A DNA stretch of 64,000 nt, from NCBI GenBank assembly GCA_902489595.1, contig CABUAS010000001.1:2166-66165 (forward strand), read 5' to 3'. The first letter of the stretch is position 1, and each line of letters opens with the position of its first letter. A program made the translations under genes and the position numbers. Source of the stretch: an uncultured Oscillospiraceae bacterium (GTDB lineage Bacteria; Bacillota; Clostridia; Oscillospirales; Acutalibacteraceae). This document shows positions 11,358 through 54,508 of this stretch, in pieces. Under the pieces are notes generated by a model. The model did no database searches. It was not told the origin of the DNA and worked only from the letters and a program-made list of their open reading frames with translations.

Positions 11358-11395
11358 CGGATTAAAATTTTCACTCTCACAGCGCAGGTGATTTT

Positions 11396-36234: not shown

Positions 36235-37251
36235 TCAGTTCAGTTTTTTAACAGTCAATGACGCCTGATTTACTGTTCCTTCTGTGTTGTTTACAGTTGA
36301 AGTCAGCGAAACATCAATAACATCACCTGCGGCAAGTGTAACGATTACACTGTTTCCGAAAGTTTTATCGTTATTCGCAGTCAGCGTCAAAGTCTGTGCA
36401 GTTTGAGGAATAACACTGCCATTGTTCCTGACAGCAAGAGTTAGATTTCCTGCATTGCTTACTGATGCCACAACATTGTAGGTCAGTTCATAATCTCCTG
36501 CCGTTGTTATTGTGAGCGCATTGGCATTTGCCGCAGTGTTCACATTTAAAGTCGGCATAATTGACGGCATAGTTACCGTTGTAGGTGTTCCTGTTACAGT
36601 TTCAAAATCCTGTGCCGCAGTAGAATAGCGTCCGCTGTACGCTTCCAATCCTGAACCTTCTGCACCCGTAGCACCTGTTGCGCCTGTTGCGCCTGTTGCG
36701 CCTGTTGCACCCGTTGCGCCTGTTGCACCCGTTGCGCCTGTAACACCCGTTGCGCCTGTTGGTCCTGTCGGTCCTGTTGCACCGTTTGTACCCGCTGTGC
36801 CTGTTGCACCCGTTGCGCCAGTTGGTCCCGTAGGTCCTGTTGCACCGTTTGTACCTGCCGTGCCTGTAGCACCTGTAGCGCCCGTTGGTCCCGTAGGTCC
36901 TGTTGCACCGTTTGTACCTGCCGTGCCTGTTGCACCTGTCGGTCCTGTAGGACCCATCTGACCGTTCATACCGTCTGCACCCGTTGGTCCTGTCGGTCCT
37001 GTAGGACCCATCTGACCATTCATACCGTTAAGACCTGCAGGACCTGTCGGTCCCGTAGCACCTGTTGCACCTGTTGCGCCTGTAACTCCCGTCGAACTTC
37101 CCGTCGGTCCTGTAGGACCTGTTGCTCCCGTAGGACCTGTCGGGCCCTGAATACAACAAGGAGTACAACAATGCCTTTCAACATTACAGCTGCAGCCCTT
37201 TGAACATCCCCTGCTCAAAGCGTCGTTATCATAAGGTCTGTAAATTGTCAT
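36235..37251 (-). CDS. collagen-like (GxT repeat) BclA-type spore surface protein with C-terminal jelly-roll-like domain
   Basis: Cys-rich N-terminus ([18 protein letters not shown]), about 180 aa of GPT/GAT triplets, then a non-repetitive 140-aa C-terminal domain. Confidence 0.85.
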
Positions 37252-38430: not shown

Positions 38431-38726
38431 AAAATGAAAAACGCCACTAAATAACTTAGCGGTGTTTCTCAAAAGGGGTAAAAATTTATGTAAAAGCCAA
38501 AAGCTTTTAAGTAAGAAACGGTTTAATTTCTTACTACGCTCATCATTATAATTATTATTTAAAAAAAATCAAGACCTTTATTTGGATTTCTATTTTTTTG
38601 ACATATCGTCTAAAAAGTAAAGGCAATTTTTATGCAATTTTCACAAATGATTATTTACAGATTTTTAATGATGTACAAAAAAAGAATCAGCGGCGTGCAC
38701 ATAAATCACACCGCCGAGGCTCAAAA

Positions 38727-39170
38727 TTACTCCATCTGTTTTCCCAAAAATGCCGCTGCAACCTGCACGAGTTTAATGTCGGTTTCATCGGGCAAAGTAT
38801 TAGGCTCTGTTTCCATAAGAGCCACTGCACCCGAAACATCACCGCCGTAGATAATCGGATACACAACGTTTGCCTTGCGGTCAAACCCCTCAATCGCATT
38901 CATTGACGGAACATCGCGTGTAGCGATGTGAATCTGCCTGTTTTCCATCAAATCTTCAAGATTTTTTGTAATTCTGCGCTCAAGAATTTCACGCTTACTG
39001 ATACCTGATGCGGCAATAACATGATCGTTATCCATAATTGCAATCGGCAGTCCGCCGCTTTTATGAAGCACCTCGGCATACTGATTGGCAAAATTTGAAA
39101 GTTCACCGATAGGTGAATATTTTTTAAAAATAACTTCGCCCTCTGAATCCGTAAAAATTTCCAGCGGGTC
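38727..39170 (-). pseudogene. spoVT: spoVT 3' segment (codons ~32-end, GAF-like C-terminal domain), detached from its 5' end
   Basis: DPLEIFTDSEGEVIFKKYSPIGELSNFANQYAE...VQVAAAFLGKQME is collinear with SpoVT after the GDPLEIF motif. It is read as the tail of the recombinase ORF. Confidence 0.9.
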
Positions 39171-40937
39171 GCCGCCACATATAACATTGACACCGAAAGC
39201 CTTGTCCCTTTGGTTTTTAACCGTTTGGACTATTGTGGCTGATAAGTTACCTTCGATGTCCCAATTAAAATTTACGACTTTACCTCTGTAACCTGCTTCT
39301 TCGAGTTGTTCATCGGTAAGCGTACCTGCTTCAAGCAACATAGCAATATCCGCTTTTAACTCTATGTCTATGTGCGGCTCTTCGCCGTCAAAGACCACTA
39401 TTCTATCAACAATAAGCGGTAGATCGCCCTTGTCGAGTTTATCCTTGTCGAGAATATCACGGAAAATTTGCAAAGCCGTTTTTGCGATACGGTTGACCTC
39501 TATGGTTGTGTTTCTGCGTTCAACCGTCATTTCAAGTTGCTTTTCAAGACCGTCAATTTTTTGCAAAAGCTCGGTTTCCATTTCCTCATAGGTTTCCTCT
39601 ATGATTTCACGGTTTACACCTTCCGCTTTCATTAACTCACGAATTTTCTGCTTTTGAGTAGCCTTGTAACTCTCCCTTGCCTTTGCTAAATCCACCTCTA
39701 AATTTGCGATAGTGGAAGCAGAGGTTTTCATCATTTGTGGCTCACTCTTAATGGCTTTTTCCAATTCAGCAATCATTTTTTCGGAGTTCATCATCACACG
39801 CTCAATATACTTTTTGAGCATCGTATCGAGCAAATCAATACGGGTATGGTGTGATGTGCAACCTTTAAGACCTCTCTTGTGGTACGTTCCACAAGTGTAG
39901 GCGGGTGCTAAATCGGGACGGCTCATAGAGAACATAGGACTACCGCAATCACCACAAAAAAGGAAACCCGAATAGGTAGTATCGTATTTCTTGACACCCC
40001 GATAATTCGATTTTGTCCGTGCTTTTAGGTGCTGTTGAGCCTTCATAAACTCTTTGACATCGACTATGGCAGGGTGATGATTTTCAAACACCTTGTGTTC
40101 GTCCTCGTCCAATTTTTTATCCGCACCATTGATATTTTTACGGGTATATTTGTGCTGACGGAGAGTGCCGATATAAAAATCATTCTGCAAAATACCGCTG
40201 ATTGACGGTATTGCCCATATAGGACTTGCTTTGATTTTTACCTCAACCTTGCCCTTGCTCTTTGCGGCTTCGGCTTCTTTGCGTTCCTTTTCCACCATAC
40301 GAGGTGTCGGGATATTTTTCTCGGTAAGGTAGTTTGCAATTTTCTTATAACCCCACCCCTCGTTGTATAGACGGAAAATCTCACGGACAACCACCGCCGC
40401 CTTTTCGTCAACCTCAAAAATCATATTTTTGGTATCAACAAAGTAATATCCGTAAGGCACGGCACAAATCCAATTCCCGTCATTTTGACGGCTCTCAACG
40501 ACCCTTTTTACCTTTTTGGAAGCATCGGTAACGGGCATTTCGTTGAGCAAAAAGCGTACTTGGATATTATTCCAATCATCATAGGTCGGATAGTCGATAC
40601 CGTCACCGATGGAAATAATACGCACCCCTGCATCTCGCAAATCTTCGAGTTCTACAAGACCTCTACTGTTACGGCGGGAAAAACGGGAAAAGTCTTTAAT
40701 GATAAGAATATCGTAATGCCCGTTCATCAAAAGTGGACGCATACGCTGATAATCTTCTCTCTGCTCAAAGGTGTAACCGCTTTTATCACGATCCTCGTAA
40801 TAGTCCACCTCTGCATCGGGAAATGTCTGCTTAATGTAAGTTTTTATAATTCTTCTTTGGTTTTCGATAGATGTATTATCTCTGTCTTTTTCAGTATCAA
40901 CAGAGATACGCATATATGCGGCAATCTTTTTCGCCAT
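38727..40937 (-). CDS. large serine recombinase (TnpX/SpoIVCA class); ORF continues in frame into the spoVT 3' segment (589 + 147 aa)
   Basis: Resolvase domain (AAYMRISVDT...RFSRR), recombinase domain, Zn-ribbon (CGDCGSPM...CGTY...C) and coiled coil. No stop codon before the junction at 39170. Confidence 0.9.
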   Translation of the reverse strand: MAKKIAAYMRISVDTEKDRDNTSIENQRRIIKTYIKQTFPDAEVDYYEDRDKSGYTFEQREDYQRMRPLLMNGHYDILIIKDFSRFSRRNSRGLVELEDLRDAGVRIISIGDGIDYPTYDDWNNIQVRFLLNEMPVTDASKKVKRVVESRQNDGNWICAVPYGYYFVDTKNMIFEVDEKAAVVVREIFRLYNEGWGYKKIANYLTEKNIPTPRMVEKERKEAEAAKSKGKVEVKIKASPIWAIPSISGILQNDFYIGTLRQHKYTRKNINGADKKLDEDEHKVFENHHPAIVDVKEFMKAQQHLKARTKSNYRGVKKYDTTYSGFLFCGDCGSPMFSMSRPDLAPAYTCGTYHKRGLKGCTSHHTRIDLLDTMLKKYIERVMMNSEKMIAELEKAIKSEPQMMKTSASTIANLEVDLAKARESYKATQKQKIRELMKAEGVNREIIEETYEEMETELLQKIDGLEKQLEMTVERRNTTIEVNRIAKTALQIFRDILDKDKLDKGDLPLIVDRIVVFDGEEPHIDIELKADIAMLLEAGTLTDEQLEEAGYRGKVVNFNWDIEGNLSATIVQTVKNQRDKAFGVNVICGGDPLEIFTDSEGEVIFKKYSPIGELSNFANQYAEVLHKSGGLPIAIMDNDHVIAASGISKREILERRITKNLEDLMENRQIHIATRDVPSMNAIEGFDRKANVVYPIIYGGDVSGAVALMETEPNTLPDETDIKLVQVAAAFLGKQME

Positions 40938-40986
40938 ATATTCACCACCAATGTTGTATTTTTATATACTCCTATTTACGAACAAC

Positions 40987-41015
40987 ATTGTAACATACCT
41001 TTCTACAAATTGCAA
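40987..41015 (-). promoter_or_regulatory. candidate sigma-A promoter of the recombinase gene (internal to the element)
   Basis: Minus strand TTGCAA, 17 nt, TACAAT, about 45 nt upstream of the recombinase ATG. Confidence 0.55.
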
Positions 41016-41095
41016 CACTTTTCGAGGAATTAGTTGATTTTGGAAGTCTTTTAATGTAATTATGGCAGAATAAACCTCTGCCATAGCAGAGATAA

Positions 41096-41344
41096 TTAAC
41101 TATCTCCGATTAGTCCTTGCTGAACGTTCTTGGCTGCAAGAACCTCTTTGTTGTGGAGCAACAACTCCTTTGTGAGTTCCACAATATCGCCTTTGCCGGA
41201 AAGGAATACGCACACCTTATACCCTTTGGCTTTCCAATTTCTATAATCGGGTTTTAAGGACTCTCGCAACGCTTTGTCCTCTCTTTCTTCCCGTGATAAC
41301 CAATAATATGCTATTTTGTTCTTGTCGCAGACTTCCAAAATCAT
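41096..41344 (-). CDS. hypothetical protein (82 aa)
   Basis: ORF with RBS GGAGGTG. No family recognised. Confidence 0.5.
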   Translation of the reverse strand: MILEVCDKNKIAYYWLSREEREDKALRESLKPDYRNWKAKGYKVCVFLSGKGDIVELTKELLLHNKEVLAAKNVQQGLIGDS

Positions 41345-41595
41345 TCGCTGACACCTCCGTTCATTCCATATTTTTCCTCGATTTTGTTGCGTCTATTCAG
41401 ATTGCTTTTTTACCCTCCGAAAAAGAAAATGGGTGTGCCTGACCTCAAGCGGCGGCTTCCAAACACCGCTTTGGTCTATATACTCTCTGTCTAAAGTAGT
41501 CCATAGAATTATTCTTTTTTCGGGTAGTAAGTTATTATCTTTAGTATTGTTTCCTGCTAAAAAGCCGCAGTCTTTAATGCGGAAAAACCGCACTC

Positions 41596-41949
41596 TTACT
41601 GTGTTTGGAACTTGTGGACGTAGAGCCGAGTCGGTCTGCCTTTGCCTTGCCGTTGTCGGCTGATGAGTCCGTACATTTCCAATTCTTTCAGCATTTTGGT
41701 GGCTTTATCGTGTCCGCAGGAAAGTGTTTCGCATATATCCTTTAGGGTGCAATACACGAACACATCGCCGTAGCGGTCAGTAAATCTATCCTTGTTTTTG
41801 GTGGAAAGGCTCATACGGTCAAGCAGTATTCCGTAGAGCAGGGCGGCATTTGCGGATAGCCCCGTATATGACGGGTGCGTTAGGATTGCTTTCGGAACTC
41901 TCACAAAAGCAAACGCTTCAGCTTCCCACCACTTGAATTTTTCGCCCAA
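41596..41949 (-). CDS. RepA_N-like winged-helix protein (replication initiator A N-terminal domain type)
   Basis: FVRVPKAILTHPSYTGLSANAALLYGILLDRMSLS...TLKDICETLSCGHDKATKMLKELE resembles the Firmicute RepA_N domain (from memory). Confidence 0.65.
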   Translation of the reverse strand: MGEKFKWWEAEAFAFVRVPKAILTHPSYTGLSANAALLYGILLDRMSLSTKNKDRFTDRYGDVFVYCTLKDICETLSCGHDKATKMLKELEMYGLISRQRQGKGRPTRLYVHKFQTQ

Positions 41950-42029
41950 GCGTTCTCACTCCTTTCGTGCGATTTTTTGTATTAAAAGGGGGCGGTTTTT
42001 GCCGTTTTCGTCCTCTGTAAGCGGCTTTT

Positions 42030-42278
42030 CTAAGGTGGGTGGTATGTTTCCCTTAACTTCCCGATATTCTGTTTTTTGCAACGATTTGGTGCTTTTTTAC
42101 GGGCATAATGCACCGCCCTTTTGCTTTCATATCGGCGGCACTCTATGATTTTCGCCCGAAAACTCTGTTTGCAATCACGGGTACAACTGCGGCATATTTC
42201 GTTGTAGGTGCGGCGGTGCGTTATCGGATGAATGAAGAACGCCCACTCTTGTTTTGCTTTCTTTGATAATCTCGGCAT
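42030..42278 (-). CDS. cysteine-rich VLP-type small protein
   Basis: Start moved to MPRLSKKAKQEW. The CRSCTRDCKQS...ECRRY motif is common in Firmicute mobile elements (from memory). Confidence 0.6.
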   Translation of the reverse strand: MPRLSKKAKQEWAFFIHPITHRRTYNEICRSCTRDCKQSFRAKIIECRRYESKRAVHYARKKAPNRCKKQNIGKLRETYHPP

Positions 42279-42419
42279 CGTAAAACTCCTTTCACTTATT
42301 TGGACAAAGGGGTGCATTTTGGACACCCATTTTGAATTTCTTTTATTTACCCCTTCACTTGTTCCTACGGACATTATCAGGGTGTCATAGAACTGTCATA
42401 ATCGTTTTGTTTTCCCTCA

Positions 42420-42800
42420 ATGAGTAGCCACCGAGAAGGGCAAAAATATAACCGTTTTCAAAAAATCTTTCTAATAAGTAGGCACCGAAAGCGGCAAAAA
42501 TTCAAAAGGATTTGAAAAAATATCTCTCTATTTGTTTGAAACGGGAGAGGAAAATATAAGGGTGTTTTTTGAAAAATCTCTCACATATTTGGAATTGCTA
42601 CCGCCGAATGATGCCCTGTTTGCATTAAATTTTTCTGCGGCTCTCACTTACCTGCCGCACGGTTTTGAAGAAAAAACGAAACAGTTTCTAATATGTAATT
42701 GGCGAATTTATTTAGCGTTTGGCAAAAATTTTTTGATCTTCCTACTTTTAATTGCTGAATTTTTTTAGCGTTTAGACACTCCGTTTAATAATTTATTGGG
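42420..42800. repeat. iteron-like direct repeats in an A/T-rich noncoding stretch (candidate origin/operator region)
   Basis: GTAGCCACCGAGAAGGGCAAAAAT (42423) matches GTAGGCACCGAAAGCGGCAAAAAT (42477). TTGAAAAAATATCTCTC matches TTGAAAAATCTCTCAC. GAATTTATTTAGCGTTTGG (42704-42722) matches GAATTTTTTTAGCGTTTAG (42756-42774). Confidence 0.4.
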
Positions 42801-42850
42801 AAATTTTTTGCTGAAAATAAAAAAGATTTCCGAAAAAATTTCTCGGAAGT

Positions 42851-43020
42851 CGAATGGAGAATGAGATGCACTATACCAGCAAGCATCGCCTTTTGTCACC
42901 CAAAGGTAGACCTGCCCGCCGACAAAGTATTGTCTTAGCGAGCAGACCGTTTTTACTCCTATCGGCTAAAAATGGTACTCGTTAGGGAAATTCCCTAAAA
43001 CCCTTTGCCGCCGCAGAGCA
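42851..43020 (-). ncRNA. candidate structured ncRNA, copy A (homologous to 53496-53722, opposite strand)
   Basis: Lies between two minus-strand terminators (43022-43062 and 42812-42850). It shares three blocks with copy B: TTAGGGAATTTCCCTAACGAG, GGTCTGCTCGCTAAGA and TTTGGGTGACAAAAGGCGATGCTTGCT. Confidence 0.35.
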
Positions 43021-43072
43021 TAAAAAAGACACCTATCAAAATTGATAAGTGTCTGTGTGCGGCGGTGCCGCC

Positions 43073-43783
43073 TTATTCAGTTTTGGTTTTGAGCCGACAC
43101 ACTCCGTCAGCTTCGTCCCGCCGCTTTAATTCGGCGGCAAGGGTATCCATCATCTTACGCTCAATGTGTTCCACGCTACCACGATTGAGGTCGTGCTGAT
43201 CGGCATACTTGCGTACCGATACCCCGTTTATGTAACGCTCGGTAAAATATTCTGCAAAAACTTTCATTACCGATTTTAAGCAGCCGTTTATAAAGCGGTA
43301 GTCCTCCATCATAACGGCATACTCATCTTTGCTAATGCCAATGTAACGGTTGTGTGCTTTGCAGAGTAAGTGCCTATCCCTATCTTCCGTATAGTGTTTG
43401 CAAAGATCCTTCGCATAATCATAATAGGTGGTGGTTGTTCGGAAACGGCGGCTGTAATAACTCTCTTTGTGTTCTTTTGGCTTGTTCGTGCGGCGAACAC
43501 CCTCGAAGCCATCTTCCTCTATATCGAGCCATAGCCAATTCGGTGCGTTCATTTGCGTTTGACGGGTAAAGCACCGCACCGTCTTTCCGTTATGCTTGAC
43601 CTTTGCATTAAAATCTTTCAAGGGCATTGTAACATACTGATTCTTGTCCTTGTAATCAACTGTATAAAAAATAACGGTGTCCTCTTGGCTTTCATAATCC
43701 TTTGCCGTTGTTACAACAAAGATGTGTTTGCCGTCATAACGCTTGTAATAACCGGCAAAGACACGCCTTTCTTTTTCAGCCAT
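43073..43783 (-). CDS. DNA-binding protein with sigma-70 region-4-like C-terminal HTH (N-terminus DUF1653-like)
   Basis: C-terminus ERYINGVSVRKYADQHDLNRGSVEHIERKMMDTLAAEL resembles a sigma region 4 HTH. The N-terminal assignment is from memory only. Confidence 0.55.
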   Translation of the reverse strand: MAEKERRVFAGYYKRYDGKHIFVVTTAKDYESQEDTVIFYTVDYKDKNQYVTMPLKDFNAKVKHNGKTVRCFTRQTQMNAPNWLWLDIEEDGFEGVRRTNKPKEHKESYYSRRFRTTTTYYDYAKDLCKHYTEDRDRHLLCKAHNRYIGISKDEYAVMMEDYRFINGCLKSVMKVFAEYFTERYINGVSVRKYADQHDLNRGSVEHIERKMMDTLAAELKRRDEADGVCRLKTKTE

Positions 43784-44034
43784 AGAACCGCCACCTTTCC
43801 GTTGAATTTATTTTATTATACACCTTTTTAAGCCGAAAAGAAAGGTCATAATTTTGAACAATTATAGCACAGTATAAAACAAATTGAGAATTAACGATTA
43901 GAATTAATGCCATCGTTAATTCTATCATCTTCACAATTAATTCTGAACTTTTTTTGAAACTTGCTTCCCAATATTGAAAATTCATTGATTTCGGGAAACA
44001 AATGTGGTATAATAACTTTGCGAGGTGATTTTCT

Positions 44035-45228
44035 ATGAAACTAATCGAAAGAAAACAATACTTAGATAAAATGATAGGCGTTATCGGAACTCCCGATATT
44101 AAAGTTTTAACAGGCGTGAGACGTTCGGGTAAATCAAAGTTACTCGAAGCCTTCAAAGCCTATGTGAAAAAGAATATTGTTGACGCTAATATTATTCATA
44201 TCAACTTTAACCTGTCTAAGTATGACAACCTTAAAGAATACAAAGCACTTAATGAATATATCGAAAACAACTATGTAGAAGGTAAGGAAAATTTCGTTTT
44301 AATTGACGAGATTCAAATGTGCGATAATTTTGAGCTGTGTATAAACAATCTCCACGCAACCGAGATGTACGATATTTATATCACGGGTTCTAACGCTTTT
44401 CTGCTCAGCTCGGATTTGGCAACATTGTTTACCGGCAGAACATTCGAAATCAAGGTGTATCCATTCTCCTTTGCCGAATATGTGCATTACTTCGGTCTAA
44501 CAGATAATTATACTGCTTTTGATAACTATATGCTTGAAGGCGGTATGTCCGGTTCTTATCTGTATAAAGAGCAAGAGGATAAATACGATTATATCGAAAC
44601 CGTCTTTGATACGTTGATCTTAAGAGATATACGACAAAAGTATAACATCAAAAATCCTGCTCTGATGGATCGTATTTCTCAATTCTTGATGGATAATGTG
44701 TCCAATTTGACCTCGGCAAGAAGCATTACGGACACGCTCACCTCGAACAAGGATAAAATTAATCATAAGACAGTTGGCAATTATCTGAGTTACCTTTGCA
44801 ACGCATTTGCCTTCTATAAGTTCCGCAGATACGATATTAAAGGCAAAAAATATCTTGCTTCCAACGATAAGTACTATTTAAGTGACCATACCTTCCGCTA
44901 TGCCAAGCTCGGTACAAAAAACTTAGATAACGGCAGAGTGATTGAAAATATCGTTGCAATGGAATTGCTTAGACGTGGCTATGAGGTTTATGTCGGTGTC
45001 TTATATAAAAAAGAGATTGATTTCGTAGCACTTAAGAGAAACGAGAAAATTTATATTCAGGTTTCGGACAATATTACCCATCCCGATACCTTTAGGCGAG
45101 AAGTTGATCCCCTGCTCAAAATCAAGGATGCCTATCCCAAGATGGTTATTGCACGAACAAGAAACCCCGAATATCAATACGAGGGCGTTAGAGTTGTTGA
45201 TGTGGCAGACTGGCTGCTAAACAAATAA
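44035..45228 (+). CDS. AAA+ ATPase (AAA_14 + DUF4143 type, COG1373-like) with PD-(D/E)xK-like C-terminus
   Basis: Walker A GVRRSGKS, Walker B VLIDEIQ. C-terminal EIDFVALKRNEKIYIQVS nuclease-like motif. Confidence 0.8.
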   Translation: MKLIERKQYLDKMIGVIGTPDIKVLTGVRRSGKSKLLEAFKAYVKKNIVDANIIHINFNLSKYDNLKEYKALNEYIENNYVEGKENFVLIDEIQMCDNFELCINNLHATEMYDIYITGSNAFLLSSDLATLFTGRTFEIKVYPFSFAEYVHYFGLTDNYTAFDNYMLEGGMSGSYLYKEQEDKYDYIETVFDTLILRDIRQKYNIKNPALMDRISQFLMDNVSNLTSARSITDTLTSNKDKINHKTVGNYLSYLCNAFAFYKFRRYDIKGKKYLASNDKYYLSDHTFRYAKLGTKNLDNGRVIENIVAMELLRRGYEVYVGVLYKKEIDFVALKRNEKIYIQVSDNITHPDTFRREVDPLLKIKDAYPKMVIARTRNPEYQYEGVRVVDVADWLLNK

Positions 45229-45370
45229 CAACTTCCCAAAAACGAAAAAAATATAAATTTGGATAACGTAATTATTATCCCGCATATATCTTTTTATCAA
45301 GCCGATATTCGTTGGCGCTATTGATATGAAAGTTGTAGATGCTTGTGGGGTAACAGCAAAAGGAGAAAAA

Positions 45371-45871
45371 ATGAAGTTAGCTGAAATATTAAATCTCATA
45401 GCAATTATTATAATTCCAATTATCGCCGTTATAGTTGGGCAGTGGTTACAAACTCGCTCTGAAAAACGAAAAGACAAAATGCACATATTTAAAACATTAA
45501 TGACTTCCCGTGTTTATGGGTGGACGCAAGAAAGTGTATATTGCTTAAATATAATCGACATAGTGTTTGCAGATGATAAGAAAGTACGCAATGCGTGGAA
45601 AGACTTGTACGATAAGTATTGTGTTCAAAATCCCGATGAATCGCAACTTAAAAAAATCGAGACTGCACAATACAAATTATTAGAGACTATGGCTGTTTCT
45701 TTAGGATATAAGGATAAGGTTACGTGGGAAACCATTCAAAATCCCTATATTCCCAAAGGAATGTTACGGCAGATCGAAGCTCAAAACCAATCTCAACAAG
45801 CGTATAACAATCTATTGCTAAATATGCAACAGATGATGCCGCAGAGTAAAAATCCGGAGGAAAAGAAATGA
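45371..45871 (+). CDS. small N-terminally membrane-anchored protein, translationally coupled to mod
   Basis: Start at [25 protein letters not shown] (RBS AAAGGAG). Its stop overlaps the mod ATG (ATGA). Confidence 0.6.
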
Positions 45872-47592
45872 GTACCAATATTTCAAAACAAAAGCGTGAG
45901 GATCTACTTACGAAAATAAAAGAAATTCGGACTTTTATTTCTGCTGCACCGCAGGACGAGAACACGGGCAATCTGCTCTCCTACCTTTCGGAGCTTGAAA
46001 AAGATGTGTGCGGTAAAAAATACGGTCTTGTGTTCGAGGAACACCGTGAGGAGATTGACGAGGTACTTGCCACCCACACGCCCGTCCTGACTGAGCAAAG
46101 CGACCTTTATATTGCCAACGGCGGCGAAATGAACTTTCTTATCGAGGGGGACAACCTCGCTTCGCTCAAATTGCTTGAAAAGACACACAAGGGTAAAATT
46201 GACCTCATTTACATAGATCCGCCATATAACACACAAAACGCTGATTTTATGTACGATGATACTTTTGTTGCGGCGGATGACTTATATAGACACAGTAAAT
46301 GGCTGTCTTTTATGAAAAAAAGATTACTGTTTTGTCGAAAATTATTAGCTGACAGAGGTTTTATTTTTATAAGCATTGATGACAACGAAGCACCGTACTT
46401 AAAGGCTCTCTGTGATGAAATTTTTGGTGAGGATAATTACGAAAAAACTGATTATATTCAAGTGCGTTATCCCGATAAAACATTGAAATCCGATATGCGT
46501 TACCACAAGGAAATTGAGCAAGTTTTAGTGTATCGAAAGTCATTTGCGGCAAAACCATATCTTAAACCACAAGAATATGATTACGATAAATTTATATATT
46601 CTATCAATGAATTATCCGCAGGCAAAGAGATCGAATTGGGCGGAAAAAAGGTGGTTGTCTTTGAGCAAGACGAATACGAAATCATACAACACGATACGGG
46701 CTTCAAAGATGGTCTAAAAGAAATATGGGCAACGGGTACAATTCTCAATGGTAATTCATCGGGTAGATTTTTCCGTGATTATCTTGATGGCAGAAAAGAT
46801 ATTGATGGATTAGGCATTCTTTATAAAGTTTATGGTATAGGCGATGACCAATACCCCTACCGATATTTTACCGGTCCTAAAAAGGCAAATGCAACAAAAG
46901 GAAAGTATTATCAAGGAGTTCCTTTCGAAAAGATGGCAGAGGGTGCGACAAAGGTAACTCCTATTCCTAATTTTTATGATATGGCAGGAGATTTTGGCAA
47001 CATTCGGCACGAGGGCGGTGTTCCTTTTAATAGCGGCAAAAAACCTGTTAAACTGATAAATATGTACCTTGATTATTTTGCAGAGAAAGATATTACGGTT
47101 CTTGACTTTTTCGCAGGTTCAGGCAGTACGGGACACGCTGTGTTACAACGCAATACCCTTGACGACGGAAATCGAAAATTCATTCTTTGCACAAATAACG
47201 AAAGCGGTATTTGTCGGGACATTACATATACCCGCATTAAAAACGTTTTGCAGAAAAATAGCGGCAGTCTAAAATATTACAAGGTGGACTATATCCCCGT
47301 GAGCGAGCGTATGTACTACGAATATGCGGACGAGCTGCTTTTGCATATCCGTGAACTCGTTGAGCTTGAAAACGGTGTAAATTTTACGGGCAATGCTGAA
47401 ATCGGTATTGTGCTGACGGAAGAAGAACTTGACGAATTTATAGCCAATGCAGACTCTTTTGCAAAATGCCGCAAACTGTATATGGGACACGACCTCTTAC
47501 CGAGCGAAGAACAAGAGCGTGTACTGAAGAAATACGGCATTGAAATCAGTATCATTCCCGACTACTACTATCGGGATTTGCAGGAGGGTTGA
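45868..47592 (+). CDS. mod: type III restriction-modification methyltransferase (Mod)
   Basis: DPPYN motif ([10 protein letters not shown]) and [13 protein letters not shown] motif in beta-class order, with a central variable region. Confidence 0.85.
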
Positions 47593-49781
47593 TTATGGTA
47601 TTAAAAGAATTTCAGTTAAATGCGGTAAAATCGTTGTTTGAAGCAATGGCAACCCCTGCTCGTGATATTATTCTCAAAAGCCCTACGGGTAGCGGTAAAA
47701 CCATTATTTTGACCTATTTTATGCACCAATACATACAGTCTTTCCCGAAAACCGTCTTTGTATGGCTTACGCCCGGCAAGGCAAACCTTGAAGAACAGAG
47801 CAAGGCGAAAATGGATAAGTATATCCACGCTTCGCAAACAAAACTGCTCTCCGATGTGATGACGGCGGGTTTTGAGGAAAATGACAGTTGCTTTATAAAT
47901 TGGGAGAAGCTGACGAAGAAAGGCAATAATGCCCTGAAAGACAGTGAACGCACCAACTTTTTAGAGCATATTCAACACGCCCTCAATGACGGTATTCGCT
48001 TTGTGATTATCGTGGACGAGAGCCACCAAAACAACACCATAAAAGCCGATGAAATTATACAGTATTTTCACACGGACAAGATTATCCGTTGCTCTGCTAC
48101 TCCGAAAGGCATAGCGAAAGCGGAAATCATTGATATTCCCGAAGAAGAGGTTATTGCGGCGGGACTTATCAAAAAAATGCTTGTTATTAACCAAGACTTT
48201 CCGCAGACCATTGAAACAGAAGATCAAACGGCTTTTCTGCTTGAAAAGGCACTCAAAAAGCAAAGGGAACTCCGTGCAGCATTTTTACAAAACGATACCG
48301 ATATTAACCCTTTAATCGTAATTCAGATCCCGAACAAATCTGAATCCTTGCAGGACGGTGTGGAACGTTACCTTGAAACGCAGGGGTTGACCTACGAGAA
48401 CGGACAACTTGCGGTATGGCTCTCCGACCAACACGAAAATTTGGAGGGTATTGACGAGCCTAACGCCACCACCTCTGCGGTCATTATAAAACAAGCGGTT
48501 GCTACGGGTTGGGATTGTCCGAGAGCACATATCCTTGTGAAACTTCGTGATAATATGGACGAAACCTTTGAGATACAAACGATAGGTCGTATTCGCCGTA
48601 TGCCCGAAGCAAAGCACTACCAAAGTGATCTGCTCGACAGTTGCTATCTTTACACCCTCGATGAAAAATTCACCGCAGGCGTAAAAATGGCTCTCGACAA
48701 GGGTGCATTAAACGCTTGTACTCTTTTTCTTAAAAACGAATATAAAGACATAACGCTCACAAGCGAACAGCGAACAATGGTTACAAGTACCCGTAATCCA
48801 CAAAAGGCATTACAAGCCATTGTTGCCTACGCTCAAAAGGAACTTGGCATTGGTACGGACAAGACGGAAAATCGGACACGTTTGCAGACCGCAGGCTATG
48901 AGTTGAGCGAAAACATTGTAAAGCATACCCTTTCGGGTGAAACTGCTACCCTTGATTTTGCGGCGGCAGATATGAACGCTATTGCGGTTACTGAAAAACT
49001 GAATACCCATACACACGGACGAGATTACCATCAAAAAGTCGGTAAAATCGGCTTGGAAATCGGTATGGAATATTCGTATATGAACACCATTATTCGCAAA
49101 CTGTTTGATAAAAACTTTAAGTACAGCCGTAAAATCCTTGCTTTAGAGCCGAGAGAGGTTTACGCCTTCGTAATAAACAACGCTGACAGACTTCGCCATT
49201 TAGTGCGTGAAGCTATGGCTTATGAATTGGCTCAAATGCAGTTTGAAATTCAGCAAAAATCTTATTACGAGTTCCGCATTCCGCAGTCTTGTTTATTCAC
49301 CTACAACGGCGAAGCGAAAACGCAGCTCGTAATGAAAAAGAACGTATATCAGAATTATCTCTCATCTGCCGCACCACGCTCTATGCCGGAGGTTAAATTT
49401 GAGAAATTCTGCGAGCGTTCCGACAGCATTGAATGGTGGTATAAAAACGGGGACAAGGGTAATGAGTATTTTTCTATCGTCTATACGGATAATTCCAATA
49501 GACAAAAGCTGTTCTACCCCGACTATATTATTTCCGTAAACGGCGAGTTGTGGATTATCGAAACAAAGGGCGGCTTTGACCGTAGCGGCAATAGCCAAGA
49601 TATAGACCTTTATACACCGAAGAAATTTGGTGTGTTAAAAGCCTATCTTGACGAACACGGATTAAAAGGCGGTATCGTCCGCAACGATGCAACAACCGAT
49701 GAACTGTGTATCTGTATGGATCACTATTCCGATGACATCGGTAGTGATGATTGGCAAGTGCTTGAAAGCGTATTGCCTTAA
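47589..49781 (+). CDS. res: type III restriction enzyme Res subunit (SF2 helicase + PD-(D/E)xK nuclease)
   Basis: [13 protein letters not shown] and QTIGRIRR helicase motifs. C-terminal [18 protein letters not shown] nuclease motif. Start overlaps the mod stop. Confidence 0.85.
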
Positions 49782-49822
49782 ATAGACGAAAACGGCAGGT
49801 GTCTATACTGCACCTGCCGTTA

Positions 49823-50080
49823 CTACTCTATTTCTTGGTCGAGGTTATCGAACTCTGCTGAGTCGAAAAAGTCTTTAAGGGACATATTAACCCCGTCACA
49901 AATGATTTTTATGGTTGCGATTTTAGGATTTTTGCTTTTGCCGTAAAGGATATTCTTTATCGAGGACGGCGGCAAGCCTGCGGCGGTTGCCAACGCATTT
50001 ATGGTTAAATCCTTTTCATCGCATATCTGCAATATTCTATTTTTAACCGCTTTGCATAGCGGTGAGCGTTGATCGGTCAT
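49823..50080 (-). CDS. XRE-family HTH transcriptional regulator
   Basis: Start at MTDQRSPL. HTH ICDEKDLTINALATAAGLPPSSIKNILYG. Confidence 0.8.
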   Translation of the reverse strand: MTDQRSPLCKAVKNRILQICDEKDLTINALATAAGLPPSSIKNILYGKSKNPKIATIKIICDGVNMSLKDFFDSAEFDNLDQEIE

Positions 50081-50194
50081 ACTGACTACCCCTATATACA
50101 CATTTTGCTATATATAGTGTAGTCAATTTTTTTGACGATTATAGGCTACGCATACTACTTTTAGGCTATACATAGCCTATTGGAGATGAACACA

Positions 50195-50626
50195 ATGGAG
50201 AAAACAGCGACTTTTATCGGACACGGCGAGTGTTGGGGTGTGGATAAAGAGAAAGTCCGTGCCGCCGCCGAAGAATTGATACAAAAAGGTGTCGAAACCT
50301 TCCTTTCGGGCGGTATGGGCGGCTTTGATTGGCTCGGTGCAAGGGTTGTATATGAGTTAAAGGAAAAGTACCCTCATATCAAAAATATCCTTGTAATTCC
50401 GTACCTTACCTTTAACGTGCGGAACAAAGACCTCTTTGACGAAATACTCTACCCCGATGGCTTTGAGAAATATCATTTTAAGGCGGCGATCCCGAAGCGT
50501 AACCGCTTTCTCGTAGATAACTCAAAATATGCAATCTGCTATGTTACACACGGCTGGGGCGGAGCTGCACAAACCTATGAATACGCAAAAAAGCACGGCT
50601 TGAACATTGTGGATATACGATGTTGA
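50195..50626 (+). CDS. SLOG-fold protein of the YpsA/DUF1273 type
   Basis: TFIGHG...FLSGGMGGFDWLGARVV...KRNRFLVDNS pattern resembles DUF1273 (from memory). Start chosen at MEKTATF with RBS GGAG. Confidence 0.6.
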   Translation: MEKTATFIGHGECWGVDKEKVRAAAEELIQKGVETFLSGGMGGFDWLGARVVYELKEKYPHIKNILVIPYLTFNVRNKDLFDEILYPDGFEKYHFKAAIPKRNRFLVDNSKYAICYVTHGWGGAAQTYEYAKKHGLNIVDIRC

Positions 50627-50809
50627 AAACAAGGTGATGTGTTTTGATTTAAGCACAGCCGAAATTTCTACCTATCGTCAAGCCAAAGACGAATAATTTT
50701 TAGCACTACCAAAGCGGCAGGGGGAGAAATCTCCCTGCCGTGATTTTCCTTATTTTGTGTTAAATTTTCAAAATCGAAACAAAATATAGTGTTTATTATG
50801 AAAAAAGAC

Positions 50810-50838
50810 TTGACTTTTTCGGTAAGATGGGTTATACT
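50810..50838 (+). promoter_or_regulatory. sigma-A promoter of the immR/immA-like operon
   Basis: TTGACT, 17 nt, TATACT, 50 nt upstream of the XRE gene. Confidence 0.6.
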
Positions 50839-50886
50839 TTTGGTAAGTCGGAGTAGAAGTTACTCCGCATATAAGGAGGAAATACT

Positions 50887-51198
50887 ATGAGTAAAGCATT
50901 TGGACAGAGGTTATTAAACCTATTACAAAAACAAGGTATAACACAAAAGGAGCTTGCTGATAGAATTAATACTACTGAAGCAACACTCTCTCGTTATGTT
51001 TCCGGCGACAGAGAGCCTAAAGCGGATATGCTCGCAAATATCGCTACTGCCCTTCACACTACATCGGATTATCTGCTCGGAATTGAGCCTGATGATTTTG
51101 ATTTCCCAAAGGTTGAGCGTCTATTAGCAAGAAACGCCGCAACAATGTCGGAAAAACAAAAACGAGCACTTATTTCTGCTTTGTTCGGGGAGGACTAA
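50887..51198 (+). CDS. XRE-family repressor (ImmR-like)
   Basis: HTH QKELADRINTTEATLSRYVSGDREP. Directly followed by the ImmA-type protease gene. Confidence 0.85.
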   Translation: MSKAFGQRLLNLLQKQGITQKELADRINTTEATLSRYVSGDREPKADMLANIATALHTTSDYLLGIEPDDFDFPKVERLLARNAATMSEKQKRALISALFGED

Positions 51199-51200
51199 TA

Positions 51201-51749
51201 TTGGCATTTAGATTATCAGACAAACGATGTGAAGAAATCAAAGAGATTGTAGTCAACACTTTCGAGGAACTTAATATCCGATGTATTCCTATAAGTGCCT
51301 TTGAAATGGCTACAAAACTCGGTGCGGTGGTTGTCCCTTATTCCTCAAAAACCGAAGAAACACGGCAACTTATGATGGAAAGAAGTGAGGACGGATTTAC
51401 CATCAAGAAAGATGGCGTGTGGTACATTTTTTATAATGATGCAAAGGGCTACGGACGTGTCAACAACACCCTCACCCACGAGTGTGGGCATATAGTGTTG
51501 GATCACACGGAAGAAAGCGAATTGGCAGAAGCCGAAGCGAAGTTTTTTGCAAAGTATGCTCTCGCACCGCCCGTCCTCATTCACAAATTAGAGTTAAAGG
51601 ATGCCTACGAGGTTTACGAGCATTTTGACATCAGCCTTGAAGCAGCAGGCTACGCCTTCTCTTACTATCGTAAATGGTTGACTTACGGCAATAAGGATTA
51701 TACCAATTACGAAATACGATTACTCCAGCTTTTTAAAGAAGCTGTGTAA
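51201..51749 (+). CDS. ImmA/IrrE-family metalloprotease (anti-repressor type)
   Basis: HExxH motif THECGHIVLDH. TTG start with RBS GGGGAGGA. Confidence 0.85.
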   Translation: MAFRLSDKRCEEIKEIVVNTFEELNIRCIPISAFEMATKLGAVVVPYSSKTEETRQLMMERSEDGFTIKKDGVWYIFYNDAKGYGRVNNTLTHECGHIVLDHTEESELAEAEAKFFAKYALAPPVLIHKLELKDAYEVYEHFDISLEAAGYAFSYYRKWLTYGNKDYTNYEIRLLQLFKEAV

Positions 51750-51781
51750 TAGTAAATTAAGAGAAAGGACGGTGATGTTAT

Positions 51782-51982
51782 ATGATTGTAAAGGTCGTAC
51801 AAATAGAAAAAGCACTCAGTAAATTGCGGCAACAATTTACAAAGTGCGTTCTCTTTGGATGCGAGCATCCGATATTCTGTTACAAGTATTATGCCACATC
51901 TGAAGAAAAATTGCAAGAACTATTGATGTTTTTACGAAAAAAATTTGCGATTTTCTGCAAAGAACAGATGAGGAGGGCATAA
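51782..51982 (+). CDS. hypothetical small protein (66 aa)
   Basis: ORF in operon context only. Confidence 0.35.
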   Translation: MIVKVVQIEKALSKLRQQFTKCVLFGCEHPIFCYKYYATSEEKLQELLMFLRKKFAIFCKEQMRRA

Positions 51983-51987
51983 TATAT

Positions 51988-52653
51988 ATGTCAAGAAAAA
52001 ATGGCACTCGAAGTGGGTGCAAAGATGTTTTTCACGCATTTTTAGTAAAAAATGCGAACTACGATAGTCCACTTGAAATCCCGTGCTTAAAAACAGAAAT
52101 GCGAAAGCCCAACAAGCTCATTGCGTTTTCAAAGGCGGTACACAGTACCGAATATGATGCTTGGGTGCATTTTTACGAGGACGATACCGCTTTTGAAAGA
52201 TTATGGAATAGACCTAACACCTATCTCCCTATCCTAAAGAAATTCAAAGGGGTTATATCTCCCGATTTTAGTGTCTATCGAGATATGCCGTTGGTAATGC
52301 AACAATGGAATATTTATCGTAGCCGTGCAATCGGTCATTGGTTGCAAGAAAACGGAATACCCGTCATCCCCAATATACGCTTTGGCGATGATCGTACATT
52401 TGAATTATCCTGTGCGGGTATAAAAAAGCACGGGGTAATCGCAGTAGGCTCTCACGGCTGCATAAGGCTACTGAGCGAACGCAAGTATTTTATAAACGGC
52501 TTAAAATATGTGGTTGACACATTAGAGCCAAAAACCATTGTGGTATATGGTGCTACACCGGACGAGGTTTTCGCACAGTATAAAGAAATGGGAATTGAAA
52601 TACTGCAATTCGACAGCGACTTTATGCAAAGTCGAAAGGCGGTGAGCGCTTAA
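51988..52653 (+). CDS. DUF4417-like protein
   Basis: The pattern VISPDFSVYRDMPLVMQQWNIYRSRAIGHWLQENGIPVIPN matches my recollection of DUF4417. RBS GAGGAGG. Confidence 0.55.
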   Translation: MSRKNGTRSGCKDVFHAFLVKNANYDSPLEIPCLKTEMRKPNKLIAFSKAVHSTEYDAWVHFYEDDTAFERLWNRPNTYLPILKKFKGVISPDFSVYRDMPLVMQQWNIYRSRAIGHWLQENGIPVIPNIRFGDDRTFELSCAGIKKHGVIAVGSHGCIRLLSERKYFINGLKYVVDTLEPKTIVVYGATPDEVFAQYKEMGIEILQFDSDFMQSRKAVSA

Positions 52654-53093
52654 TGGGTGCAGGCTTTCACGGTGGTTTTGGCGGCACTCACGGTGCAGGC
52701 GAAAACCACAAAGATTACATTGAAAATACTCTGCCCAAGAGTTCACCTATTAAAATTCCGTACTCTGCCACAGTAAAAGAAGAACAGAAAAACGGATACG
52801 ACCAAGTTAAATATACTTGGAAAAAGGGTGATTATTCTTATACAAGCCGTTGGCACACCCGCACACCTAATGCACCAAAAGAGCAAGGAAATTCGTGGGT
52901 TGTTGAGCGTAAAAAATCAGGTGTTGGTTACGGCAAAAATGCACGCCCAAAGCAAGAAGAAGTTTTGGTAGGAAAAAACAAGTGGATATCAAAGCAAGAT
53001 TGGAAAAATGCAATAATGGCACGTAAAAAAGGCACATTAACACAACAACAAAAGGAGTGGTTGGATAATGGACACTGGAAAGACAATAGATAA
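52653..53093 (+). CDS. basic, Gly-rich-N-terminus protein (toxin-like, unassigned)
   Basis: GAGFHGGFGGTHGAG then a K/R/W-rich domain (YTSRWHTRTPNAP). TAATG overlap with the upstream gene. Confidence 0.45.
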   Translation: MGAGFHGGFGGTHGAGENHKDYIENTLPKSSPIKIPYSATVKEEQKNGYDQVKYTWKKGDYSYTSRWHTRTPNAPKEQGNSWVVERKKSGVGYGKNARPKQEEVLVGKNKWISKQDWKNAIMARKKGTLTQQQKEWLDNGHWKDNR

Positions 53094-53451
53094 TTTCAAA
53101 TTCTATGAGGGATTTGAAGGTGAACCCGAAATTGTAATCAAAGCCGAAAACTCGGATATGCAAATCTTACATATATGGGATGGATACTTTGATGATATAT
53201 TGAGAGAACCCAAGCTTGACGGAAACGGGTGGCAAGGGTTTACAAGAGATTATCATCAATGCGAGGGTGCGTTCGGGGATGATTCCGAAGCAATCATAAC
53301 AGATATAAACGAATACCTCTCTGACCTAAAATCATACCAAAATCGTCATTTTGATTATGACGATACAAAAGAAGTGTATGATTTACTGTGTTCTTGGTTA
53401 GATAATGCAATAAAAAATGGGTTTGAAAGAATATCTATAAAAGTAGTCTAA
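53068..53451 (+). CDS. acidic small protein (immunity/antitoxin-like, unassigned)
   Basis: D/E-rich 127-aa ORF with RBS AAGGAG, overlapping the preceding gene by 26 nt. Confidence 0.45.
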   Translation: MDTGKTIDNFKFYEGFEGEPEIVIKAENSDMQILHIWDGYFDDILREPKLDGNGWQGFTRDYHQCEGAFGDDSEAIITDINEYLSDLKSYQNRHFDYDDTKEVYDLLCSWLDNAIKNGFERISIKVV

Positions 53452-53495
53452 TCTATTTCACGGCAGAGACTTGTTCTCTGCCGTGTTTTCATTTT

Positions 53496-53722
53496 GGCGG
53501 GTATTAGGGTGTTCCCTAACGAGTGGTATTTGGTAGTGTGACTACCCAAATACACTGCTCGCTAAGACGGGACGGCTTACGAGCAAAGCACCGTTTGTGG
53601 AAAACCTATCCACAAATGGTCTGCTCGCTAAGATAGTGCAGATTATTACCGCACGTGGCTTTTGGGAACAAAAGACGATGCTTGCTATGCTCATACCGCC
53701 AATGGCGGCAAAGCAAAAAAGA
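53496..53722 (+). ncRNA. candidate structured ncRNA, copy B
   Basis: Flanked by terminator hairpins (53460-53495 and 53723-53768). Internal hairpins TTAGGG-TGTT-CCCTAA, GGTAG-TGTGA-CTACC and CCGTTTGTGG...CCACAAATGG. The CTCGCTAAGA motif occurs twice. Confidence 0.35.
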
Positions 53723-53771
53723 AGGCACAACCAACGGATTTTCGTCCGAAGGCTGTGCCTTTTTCATTGTT

Positions 53772-53945
53772 CTATACGTATTTTACACGCACATTTTTGA
53801 GTTTTGACCGCATAATTTTTAGCAAAACTTCGTCAACGCCGTCCGTGTATTTACCCGCCGATATAAGCGCGTTTTTCTTTGCGATAAGGCTCTCAATTAT
53901 CAAATTTCTTTCTTCGGGGGTGATGTAAATGTAAAACTTTTTCAA
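53772..53945 (-). CDS. small ORF (57 aa, TTG start overlapping the tnpV stop)
   Basis: (M)KKFYIYITPEERNLIIESLIAKKNALISAGKYTDGVDEVLLKIM... found by hand translation. It is below the ORF-track cutoff and is followed by a hairpin terminator. Confidence 0.4.
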   Translation of the reverse strand: MKKFYIYITPEERNLIIESLIAKKNALISAGKYTDGVDEVLLKIMRSKLKNVRVKYV

Positions 53946-54310
53946 GCGTAAACCACCTCTGCGTTGACAATTTCGGTGGCTCGGTTACGGATATTGTTCA
54001 TCTTCTGCACCCACTCCATCGGTGCGGCGGCTTTCAATTTTTCCGTAACACCCTCGTTTTCAGCAAGGGATTTTACAATGTCCTCAAACATTCTCTCGGC
54101 TCGTTTGTCGAGATTGGAAAGGTGGCTTGTCAATTTGCAACTTGTCAGCAGATTGATGTAAAACACCTTCCTGTGCTGCTTAATGTAGCGTAGATGCCGC
54201 TGTCCCCATACCCCTATTTCCGTTTCTTCTTCGGTGGGCAAAACGAGGTTGGGTAGGTAGTAATCGCCCTGCTTTGTGTAAGTGCCGCCCATTTTTTCGT
54301 ACTGTGTCAT
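53942..54310 (-). CDS. tnpV: TnpV-like protein (Tn4451/Tn4453 family accessory protein)
   Basis: MTQYEKMGGTYTKQGDYYLPNLVLPTEEETEIGVWGQRHLRYIK...WVQKMNNIRNRATEIV matches the TnpV pattern. RBS GGAGG. Confidence 0.8.
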   Translation of the reverse strand: MTQYEKMGGTYTKQGDYYLPNLVLPTEEETEIGVWGQRHLRYIKQHRKVFYINLLTSCKLTSHLSNLDKRAERMFEDIVKSLAENEGVTEKLKAAAPMEWVQKMNNIRNRATEIVNAEVVYA

Positions 54311-54331
54311 TTTTTCTGACCTCCGTATAAT

Positions 54332-54508
54332 TTATTTTCCGATGCAACGTTCAGCGAACTGAAGCATTGCATAACAGAACTTTTCATACGGTGTCAATGA
54401 TGTATGTAACGGGTCACCCTCTTTAATTCTGAATGAACGCCTGATTTCCTTTGGAATAACAATTCTTCCGAGATCATCAATACGTCTTACAATTCCTGTT
54501 GCCTTCAT
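54332..54508 (-). pseudogene. spoVT: spoVT 5' segment (AbrB-type N-terminus, 33 codons) running into 24 element-encoded codons
   Basis: MKATGIVRRIDDLGRIVIPKEIRRSFRIKEGDP then LHTSLTPYEKFCYAMLQFAERCIGK-stop. RBS GGGAGA. Confidence 0.9.

Follow-up and report, generated by a model that had tools for sequence, protein, structure and literature searches.

The large serine recombinase (LSR) of a 15.2-kb integrative element from gut Clostridia acquires a different C-terminus when its element integrates. The element lies in a 64-kb stretch of DNA from an uncultured Oscillospiraceae bacterium (contig CABUAS010000001.1; the whole stretch is referred to as the window), where it interrupts the sporulation gene spoVT. 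The attachment site of the element, attP, falls within the 3′ end of the recombinase gene, and sequence comparison shows the same placement across this recombinase clade. The native, unintegrated enzyme is shown by sequence and structure prediction to have 616 aa and to end in a conserved 25-residue segment, modelled as an amphipathic helix and encoded beyond the crossover. Integration replaces this C-terminal helix by whatever the target encodes. At spoVT the two reading frames coincide, and the result is an in-frame chimera of 736 aa, LSR(1-591)::SpoVT(34-178), which ends at the spoVT stop codon. Judged from the assemblies compared, the feature is real, recurrent, and inherited across the clade.

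The 736-aa open reading frame (ORF) is the LSR of the element (Table 1). Pfam finds Resolvase (PF00239, residues 5-154, E 1.6e-16), Recombinase (PF07508, 179-307), and Zn_ribbon_recom (PF13408, 322-378) in the chimera, followed at its C-terminus by SpoVT_C (612-736, E 4.5e-39). Catalytic residues R10 and S12 are invariant in one homologue alignment (A3) and nearly invariant in another (A2), and the zinc-ribbon cysteines C328, C331, C349, and C360 are invariant in the alignments. In the AlphaFold2 (AF2) model of the free form, long helices of a coiled coil span 367-497. A Foldseek search with the model returns cryo-electron microscopy structures of serine integrase-att complexes as best matches (9y66, 9dxh, and 9dxd, E ~1e-21), then PhiC31, Bxb1, and 4KIS. 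By sequence and predicted fold, with a catalytic domain, the DNA-binding domains DBD1 and DBD2, and a short, imperfectly palindromic attP with a central dinucleotide, the ORF is a large serine recombinase.

The remainder of the chimera derives from the host gene. In Bacillus subtilis, spoVT is a forespore (sigma-G) gene. Its 5′ end is found here 15 kb from the 3′ part on the same strand and reads MKATGIVRRIDDLGRIVIPKEIRRSFRIKEGDP, followed by the element codons LHTSLTPYEKFCYAMLQFAERCIGK and a stop codon (54332-54334). When the host halves are rejoined in silico, as attB, they encode a SpoVT of 178 aa whose alignment with the B. subtilis protein (2W1T, E 4.9e-47) runs from one end to the other. 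The protein is broken at Gly31-Asp32-Pro33, within the N-terminal swapped-hairpin domain, and the chimera holds half of the SpoVT DNA-binding domain plus the GAF-like domain. The first-pass annotation of this DNA had described the host part as a GAF-like domain of 147 aa; its origin from the SpoVT C-terminus stands, but SpoVT 34-178 amounts to 145 residues after GDP and includes the second half of the swapped-hairpin domain. The 64-kb window holds no second copy of spoVT.

The hexamer GACCCG is common to both junctions, in the frames GGC GAC CCG and GGT GAC CCG, both read as G-D-P, and the junctions agree with the earlier placement of the crossover core in the 3′ end of the recombinase. The reconstructed attP, CGGTGTCAATGTTATATGTGGCGGC-GA-CCCGTTACATACATCATTGACACCG, is symmetric about GA at 19 of 24 positions, and GA is the best symmetry centre in three further lineages too. 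Among 10 loci with an identical tnpV, the host sequences differ completely as far as ..GG(Y)GA, and from that point the element sequences agree throughout; the flanking host genes all differ. At five secondary-site junctions, shared sequence stops after ..GGCGA, with GA as the last shared base pair. Because symmetry centre, host contexts, and secondary junctions all point to GA, comparison places the crossover at the GA of spoVT codon Asp32 and sets the limits of the element at 39169-54413. Both arms of attP are coding, the left as ..FGVNVICGG and the right as PLHTSLTP, and integration cuts the gene two bases into codon 590 of the recombinase. Recombination of attP with attB by this LSR is predicted, indirectly, from identical element ends in at least 10 host contexts and from contigs with a joined attP.

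Those contigs carry the free form of the enzyme. Exact protein look-up located the predicted free forms letter for letter in the protein collection, one of 616 aa (P0133) and one of 619 aa from a sister lineage (P0145, listed in 36 blocks of the assembly index). The excised isoform had been forecast at about 614 aa; the form itself is present in assemblies, at a length of 616 aa. Chimera and free forms thus both occur in real assemblies, which bears out the proposal that the C-terminus depends on the integration state. The free-form contigs read RepA_N, LSR, attP, TnpV, cargo, with attP joined, and two differently permuted contigs jointly close a circle of ~12.6 kb. Tandem copies may be an alternative to the circle for such contigs, and terminal overlaps that would prove circularity are absent from the free-form contigs. 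Searches with the tail as a short query gave 12-20 candidates; they missed the full-length free forms and the chimeras and yielded attL ORFs and secondary sites. The attP junction pattern has 0 matches in JGI metagenome contigs, a collection that hardly holds the element (the right-arm pattern finds three attL copies).

The element-encoded tail is conserved well beyond close relatives. Tails align gaplessly from the crossover in six lineages, one of them in phage, whose LSR cores are 31-58% identical. Junction and tail read ..EG followed by FVTTLSLIERYCYAIVLLSSR.. in P0160 (phage genome, 58% identity to the query), SLTTLTLEYQFYQAIRDIAERLG.. in P0177 (48%), LLTTLTKKEKGIFALSSLADRVG.. in P0179 (49%), SQTTLEAMDGFVFSLHSMVKRCAIS in P0170 (44%), and SHTIFTQEVERIMNLDEFAVRLL.. 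in P0209 (31%). Two tail residues, T3 and R21, never vary among the six lineages, and L5, A14, hydrophobic residues at 15 and 18, and A19 are kept in most. The first eight residues are forced by the right arm of attP, taken as a typical 25 bp. Beyond that arm, residues 9-25 have a mean pairwise BLOSUM62 score of 8.0 against -15.5 +/- 2.3 when shuffled, a value that none of 3000 shuffles reaches. R21 is encoded by CGT, AGA, or CGG, and synonymous codons occur at other conserved tail residues. Distant lineages were used for this comparison, as dN/dS among close lineages had too few substitutions. The 25-aa tail is, on this pattern of substitution, a conserved protein segment. One function considered for it was a degradation tag of the kind known from integration-dependent immunity; this was rejected, as the tail ends in CIGK and has no ssrA-like ending.

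The tail belongs to a longer extension. LSRs below ~48% identity mostly end at query residue ~534-536, so residues 537-591 and the tail appear to form a clade-specific extension of DBD2, in which Pfam has no match to a known domain even at E 10. The AF2 model of the free form (overall predicted local distance difference test score, pLDDT, of 88) gives the extension strands at 565-571 and 579-586 with pLDDT 67-78, and the tail an amphipathic helix at 598-614 with pLDDT 72-86. When the chimera is modelled, the extension falls below pLDDT 50, the linker is also of low confidence, and SpoVT_C folds independently at 84-93. The idea that the extension mimics the N-domain of SpoVT, with an AbrB-like fold in the chimera, was discarded: the region has no Pfam AbrB/MazE match and is of low confidence in the model.

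The fusion is widespread. The best 119 clusters retrieved with the chimera (81-95% identity, 732-742 aa) all carry the same four Pfam domains; being top matches, they are a lower bound on the clusters with the fusion. Among GTDB species-representative genomes, 43 of 55 loci (L033-L087) read through in frame into LEI[FY]T..., five lie at other sites, and seven are uninformative. The hosts are metagenome-assembled genomes (MAGs) of Acutalibacteraceae, Ruminococcus, Oscillospiraceae, Lachnospiraceae, and other Clostridia from human and ruminant guts. A sequencing or assembly artefact is ruled out by identical read-through in more than 100 independent assemblies, and the same clusters and in-frame loci exclude the error or frameshift near the junction that the first-pass annotation had named as grounds for withdrawing its 736-aa chimera. 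That chimera now stands on its ORF, its Pfam domains, and its relatives. Exhaustive search of cluster representatives adds more distant chimeras at 51-57% identity (P0161, P0162, and P0164, 723-741 aa), with the junction ..VNVxxxxDP followed by LEI[FY]T.., and the fusion is in frame in every spoVT-targeting lineage down to 51% identity. The lineages of P0177 and P0179 (P0315 and P0312), with diverged tails of their own, insert at the same GDP site of spoVT. A survey of homologues for attP at the 3′ end of their ORFs, as had been proposed, finds it throughout the clade, down to ~31-44% identity. Recombinase parts that are ~99% identical can be followed by SpoVT parts that differ according to the host (P0001 and P0094).

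One phage genome (L028-L030 at 10001-11848, with NrdD, dUTPase, lysins, and reverse transcriptase) has an integrase 58% identical to the query, with the attP-in-ORF layout and a homologous tail, which it keeps without a tnpV downstream. As this integrase shares layout and tail, the clade spans phages and small non-phage elements.

At other sites the enzyme ends in whatever is there. Within the same 90% clusters, ends after VIC[GE]G-(D/E) include DPPRGF.., DPSRIHT.., DPFQICTV, EALKIF.., ESAQIL.., and ETLRTT.., the D or E reflecting that the target supplies the third base of that codon. One recombinase ends in ~275 residues of a membrane protein (P0144) and one in another AbrB-type paralogue (P0146). 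Overall, target-encoded C-termini at secondary sites run from 2 to ~275 residues. The element tail, conversely, follows truncated N-terminal portions of MsrB, RlmH, and a VTC-domain protein. Secondary insertions (P0121, P0126, P0311, P0144, P0146; L043, L053, L055, L059, L073) thus lie in the genes for these three proteins, the membrane protein, and the AbrB-like paralogue. The right halves of the secondary targets loosely resemble the spoVT site (C..T....A.AT.T..AC).

The enzyme is an attP-in-gene LSR with a native helix-bearing form, in which integration swaps the helix for target sequence; the reading favoured overall, as moderately probable, adds an effect on activity or directionality. 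Since the circle can make only the helix-bearing form, that form would perform integration; since the single integrated copy can make only the read-through form, the helix-less chimera would perform excision, which must occur because joined attP is observed. The assignment of the two forms follows from geometry. By removing the conserved helix from the C-terminal end of DBD2, the swap may alter how active the recombinase is or which direction it favours, on the model of IntP/IntR in phage Mx8. An effect on directionality is plausible because C-terminal beta-strand extensions of DBD2 in SCCmec recombinases are proposed to fill the binding site of the recombination directionality factor (RDF), or to be "an alternate solution to directionality" (PMC12286644), and because a C-terminal integrase-RDF fusion of phiC31 integrase is reported to control directionality (PMC5737554). 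Because the 25-aa tail is conserved as protein, loss of its helix looks more meaningful than gain of the SpoVT domain, which the enzyme most probably tolerates as a passenger. A real regulatory effect of the swap is possible rather than probable. Several points weigh against the helix swap as a functional change. TnpX of the related Tn4451 family is reported to need no accessory factor in either direction (PMC3158075), so a directionality switch may be unnecessary. Insertions at secondary sites persist in genomes with arbitrary tails, and the C-terminus is therefore at least dispensable for maintenance. Tail DNA is 100% identical in the two closest lineages, which suggests an extra constraint at the DNA level or a recent exchange of modules, and the frame of the tail is shared with a 58-aa SpoVT-N::tail ORF, on whose product selection could act. 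The contrast between the free and chimeric AF2 models rests on differing alignments and is weak evidence that may be an artefact of alignment composition.

A serious if unlikely rival is that the fusion is a pure by-product: attP fell by chance in the last recombinase codons, any C-terminus is tolerated, the isoforms are alike, and tail conservation reflects attP, a tnpV leader, or DNA constraint. The arbitrary ORF ends at secondary sites fit this, as do tail codons 1-8 forming the attP right arm, tail DNA 100% identical between lineages whose recombinases differ by ~15-20%, a stop codon at a fixed 21 nt before tnpV, and the reported independence of TnpX-type enzymes from accessory factors. 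It fits poorly with tail residues 9-25, which lie beyond the attP arm and are conserved as protein at 31-58% identity with no indels and with synonymous codon changes, with a phage integrase that retains the tail where no tnpV follows, and with the confident helix predicted for the tail; the suggestion that the chimera is a mere consequence of attP position is accordingly too simple. It is very improbable that the SpoVT C-domain itself is exploited in the integrated state, for instance to sense a ligand through its GAF-like fold, or to dimerise and so alter oligomerisation, stability, or directionality. In-frame fusion in all spoVT-targeting lineages to 51% identity implies long co-evolution with the target, SpoVT_C folds confidently in the chimera model, and the phiC31 work again reports directionality control by a C-terminal fusion (PMC5737554). 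Yet near-identical recombinases bear very different SpoVT_C parts (P0001 against P0094), so that this part follows the host and not the element; insertions elsewhere have unrelated tails, linker and extension are modelled with low confidence, and the recombinase sequence shows no apparent adaptation to the domain. The built-in sensor of the first-pass annotation loses its footing here, as nothing points to the domain acting and secondary-site ORFs end in arbitrary residues. Quite improbable, too, is a chimera not made in meaningful amounts, its gene silent when integrated or its transcript ending at the junction, with the long ORF a curiosity of reading frame. Integrated elements commonly hold recombinase expression low, and a terminator-like hairpin and T-run stand exactly at attR (39177-39162, reverse strand). 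Set against this, the hairpin is a weak consensus match of six pairs, the gene has a near-consensus promoter, with an extended -10, in front of it, and contigs with joined attP show excision, for which a single integrated copy has no protein to offer but the read-through form or a shortened derivative. The helix swap also has an elaborate version, improbable as a whole, in which recombination toggles a cis-acting directionality module with no separate RDF: the helix, at the part of DBD2 and the coiled coil on which directionality factors act, would make the enzyme an integrase, its loss, perhaps with the dimerising SpoVT GAF-like domain, would favour excision, and tnpV behind the forespore spoVT promoter would time excision to spoVT expression, so that the gene is rebuilt in the forespore.

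The closest precedent in principle is the integrase of phage Mx8. There attP lies inside int, and integration creates a new 3′ end whose prophage product is reportedly still active, with changed properties (review, PMC6070905). Mx8 is like the present LSR in having the crossover inside the integrase coding sequence and a new 3′ end after integration; it differs as a tyrosine recombinase of a proteobacterial phage, and the LSR is an analogue, not a member. The new C-terminus of the Mx8 integrase is reportedly short, whereas the LSR gains, in frame, 145 residues of a folded regulator from the host. SSV1-type archaeal integrases, the analogy drawn at first, share an att site in the int gene that integration alters (PMC5861418). 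That much of the comparison holds, but their gene is interrupted and not re-tailed, they are tyrosine-family enzymes of archaeal viruses, and Mx8, with its new 3′ end, is closer. In the integration-dependent immunity of mycobacteriophages, attP near a 3′ end likewise gives a state-dependent C-terminus, there with a functional consequence (PMC6109161); the gene affected is the repressor, not the recombinase, and what the protein loses is an ssrA-like tag for degradation. The engineered phiC31 integrase-RDF fusion resembles the LSR in that a C-terminal change is tied to directionality (PMC5737554), and in a synthetic latch the state of the DNA decides which recombination machinery is expressed (PMC6511857). 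Both are man-made, whereas the state-dependent C-terminus described here is natural and arises from the position of attP.

The closest systems by descent are the TnpX/TnpV elements of Clostridia. Tn4451/Tn4453 and Tn6104/Tn6106 share with the present element an LSR, a TnpV homologue, a 2-bp crossover (GA here), and a circular intermediate, and in Tn6104 the recombinase and tnpV ORFs are adjacent (1744 and 1745), matching the order in the circle (PMC3158075). In the present element, unlike the Tn4451 type, the joint separates recombinase from tnpV and falls within the 3′ end of the recombinase gene. Lyras and Rood are said to have placed the Tn4451 joint, in 2000, upstream of tnpX, where it assembles the tnpX promoter. 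The present element further differs from Tn4451/Tn4453 in that no Mob gene was found, one target, spoVT, is conserved, and its promoter-like site is wholly internal. The skin element with SpoIVCA, SPbeta with SprA-SprB, gin in gerE, and yin in yabG are similar in that an LSR element splits a sporulation gene that precise excision would rebuild. The known examples in sigK, gerE, and spsM interrupt mother-cell genes, whereas spoVT is a forespore gene in B. subtilis. The literature search, in which coverage of subscription journals is incomplete, gave no report of a spoVT-interrupting element; with the same incomplete coverage, it gave neither a natural serine recombinase whose ORF spans attP nor an intervening-element recombinase that crosses its junction. 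The attP-in-gene principle is known from a few tyrosine integrases; its recurrence in large serine recombinases across dozens of gut Clostridia species appears to be new.

Control of directionality is a central question for LSRs and limits their use as genome-engineering tools. The clade offers a natural case in which integration rewrites the C-terminus of the enzyme beside the domain where directionality factors bind, and with it a testable, factor-free route to directionality. Insertions interrupt spoVT in dozens of species of gut Clostridia, and the element may affect spore formation and the transmission of commensals. Some chimeras are labelled at NCBI as "stage V sporulation T C-terminal domain-containing protein", a public annotation that betrays neither the split in a sporulation gene nor the presence of a mobile element.

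The LSR is the outward-facing gene at one end of the element and tnpV lies at the opposite end. Between them are an 82-aa ORF, a RepA_N protein, PDC-S01, DUF6680, the type III restriction-modification (R-M) genes Mod and Res, SLOG/YpsA, a helix-turn-helix protein with an ImmA-like peptidase, and DUF4417, in that order from the LSR. A Pfam scan of element ORFs of at least 100 aa found no Mob or relaxase domain, smaller or novel Mob proteins being outside its reach.

Table 1. Coordinates of the chimeric recombinase, the host gene, and the element within the window.
Feature	Position	Strand	Content or basis
Chimeric 736-aa ORF, integrated state	38727..40937	-	ORF, Pfam, homologue clusters, genome loci
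Element-encoded recombinase part, to crossover GA (39170-39169)	39169..40937	-	Catalytic domain, DBD1, Zn-ribbon DBD2 and coiled coil, clade-specific extension 537-591
Host spoVT 3′ part, last base of codon 32 to codon 178 and stop	38727..39168	-	Beta3-beta4 of swapped-hairpin domain and GAF-like C-domain
Host spoVT 5′ part, ATG at 54508 to first two bases of codon 32	54414..54508	-	Reconstitution of spoVT
attR: attP left arm (..FGVNVICGG) joined at GA to attB right half (PLEIFT..)	39144..39195	-	Junction comparison
attL: attB left half (spoVT codons ~24-32) joined at GA (54415-54414) to attP right arm (PLHTSLTP)	54389..54440	-	Junction comparison
Element-encoded 25-codon tail LHTSLTPYEKFCYAMLQFAERCIGK and stop	54332..54409	-	Recombinase C-terminus when attP is intact; when integrated, end of 58-aa SpoVT-N::tail ORF
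Whole integrative element, 15,245 bp	39169..54413	-	Junctions, Pfam, PADLOC
Promoter-like site TTGCAA-17-(TG)TACAAT, ~50 nt upstream of recombinase ATG	40987..41015	-	Consensus match only
PDC-S01 candidate defence gene	44035-45228		PADLOC
Type III R-M Mod	45868-47592
Type III R-M Res	47589-49781
tnpV (PF14198, E 5.8e-47)	53942..54310	-	Pfam

The tnpV gene starts 21 nt past the stop codon of the tail, behind a GGAGG ribosome-binding site. The recombinase is its immediate upstream neighbour in the circle; after integration, the host spoVT promoter and the 58-aa SpoVT-N::tail ORF take that place. Judged by these two placements, integration separates tnpV from the recombinase with which it forms an operon and puts it under the control of a sporulation promoter. 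Its position directly behind that promoter and the 58-aa ORF is at most suggestive of developmental excision at sporulation. TnpV has been postulated to be Xis-like, but in Tn4451 TnpX alone is reported to suffice (PMC3158075). The layout of tail ORF and tnpV is found at 53942-54508 (reverse strand) in the window, at 9803-10369 in L001-L010, and at 4590-6838 in L014. The promoter-like site of the recombinase is near-consensus, has an extended -10, and is entirely internal to the element, with a terminator-like hairpin ahead of it at 41093-41074. The hairpin and T-run at attR are built from element and host sequence together and are terminator-like by consensus match; if functional, the recombinase transcript would end without a stop codon.

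Around the crossover (-47 to +132), the joint of the window and that of L014, the two closest lineages, are a mosaic: DNA identity reaches 95-100% over the attP arms and the entire tail, whereas identity is ~80-88% for the recombinase and ~53% for the 5′ half of tnpV. The cargo (43073-53451 here) is defence-like and varies among copies (L014-L021, L025), with SLFN_AlbA_2/HATPase_c_4, EndoU, GmrSD/HNH, FRG, and an EcoRI-type methylase elsewhere. Some copies of the element stand on short contigs in Bacteroidales/Prevotella MAGs (L045, L050, L058, L084), which most likely represent mis-binning of a mobile element and not host range. Downstream of spoVT in the window are genes for a BclA-like protein (Collagen and BclA_C; 36235-37251, reverse strand) and a family 2 glycosyltransferase with tetratricopeptide repeats (37306-38472, reverse strand); the BclA-like collagen-repeat neighbour suggests an exosporium-bearing spore-former as host. 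At L022 10001-12511 (also L023 and L024), a relic 58-aa SpoVT-N::tail ORF has two tail substitutions and no tnpV after it. It is followed by a leucine-rich repeat gene and, 1.8 kb downstream, by an intact 185-aa spoVT, and the promoter motif GTGCAAAATATTACAGTA is duplicated before both. By its sequence, this relic looks like the scar of a past insertion.

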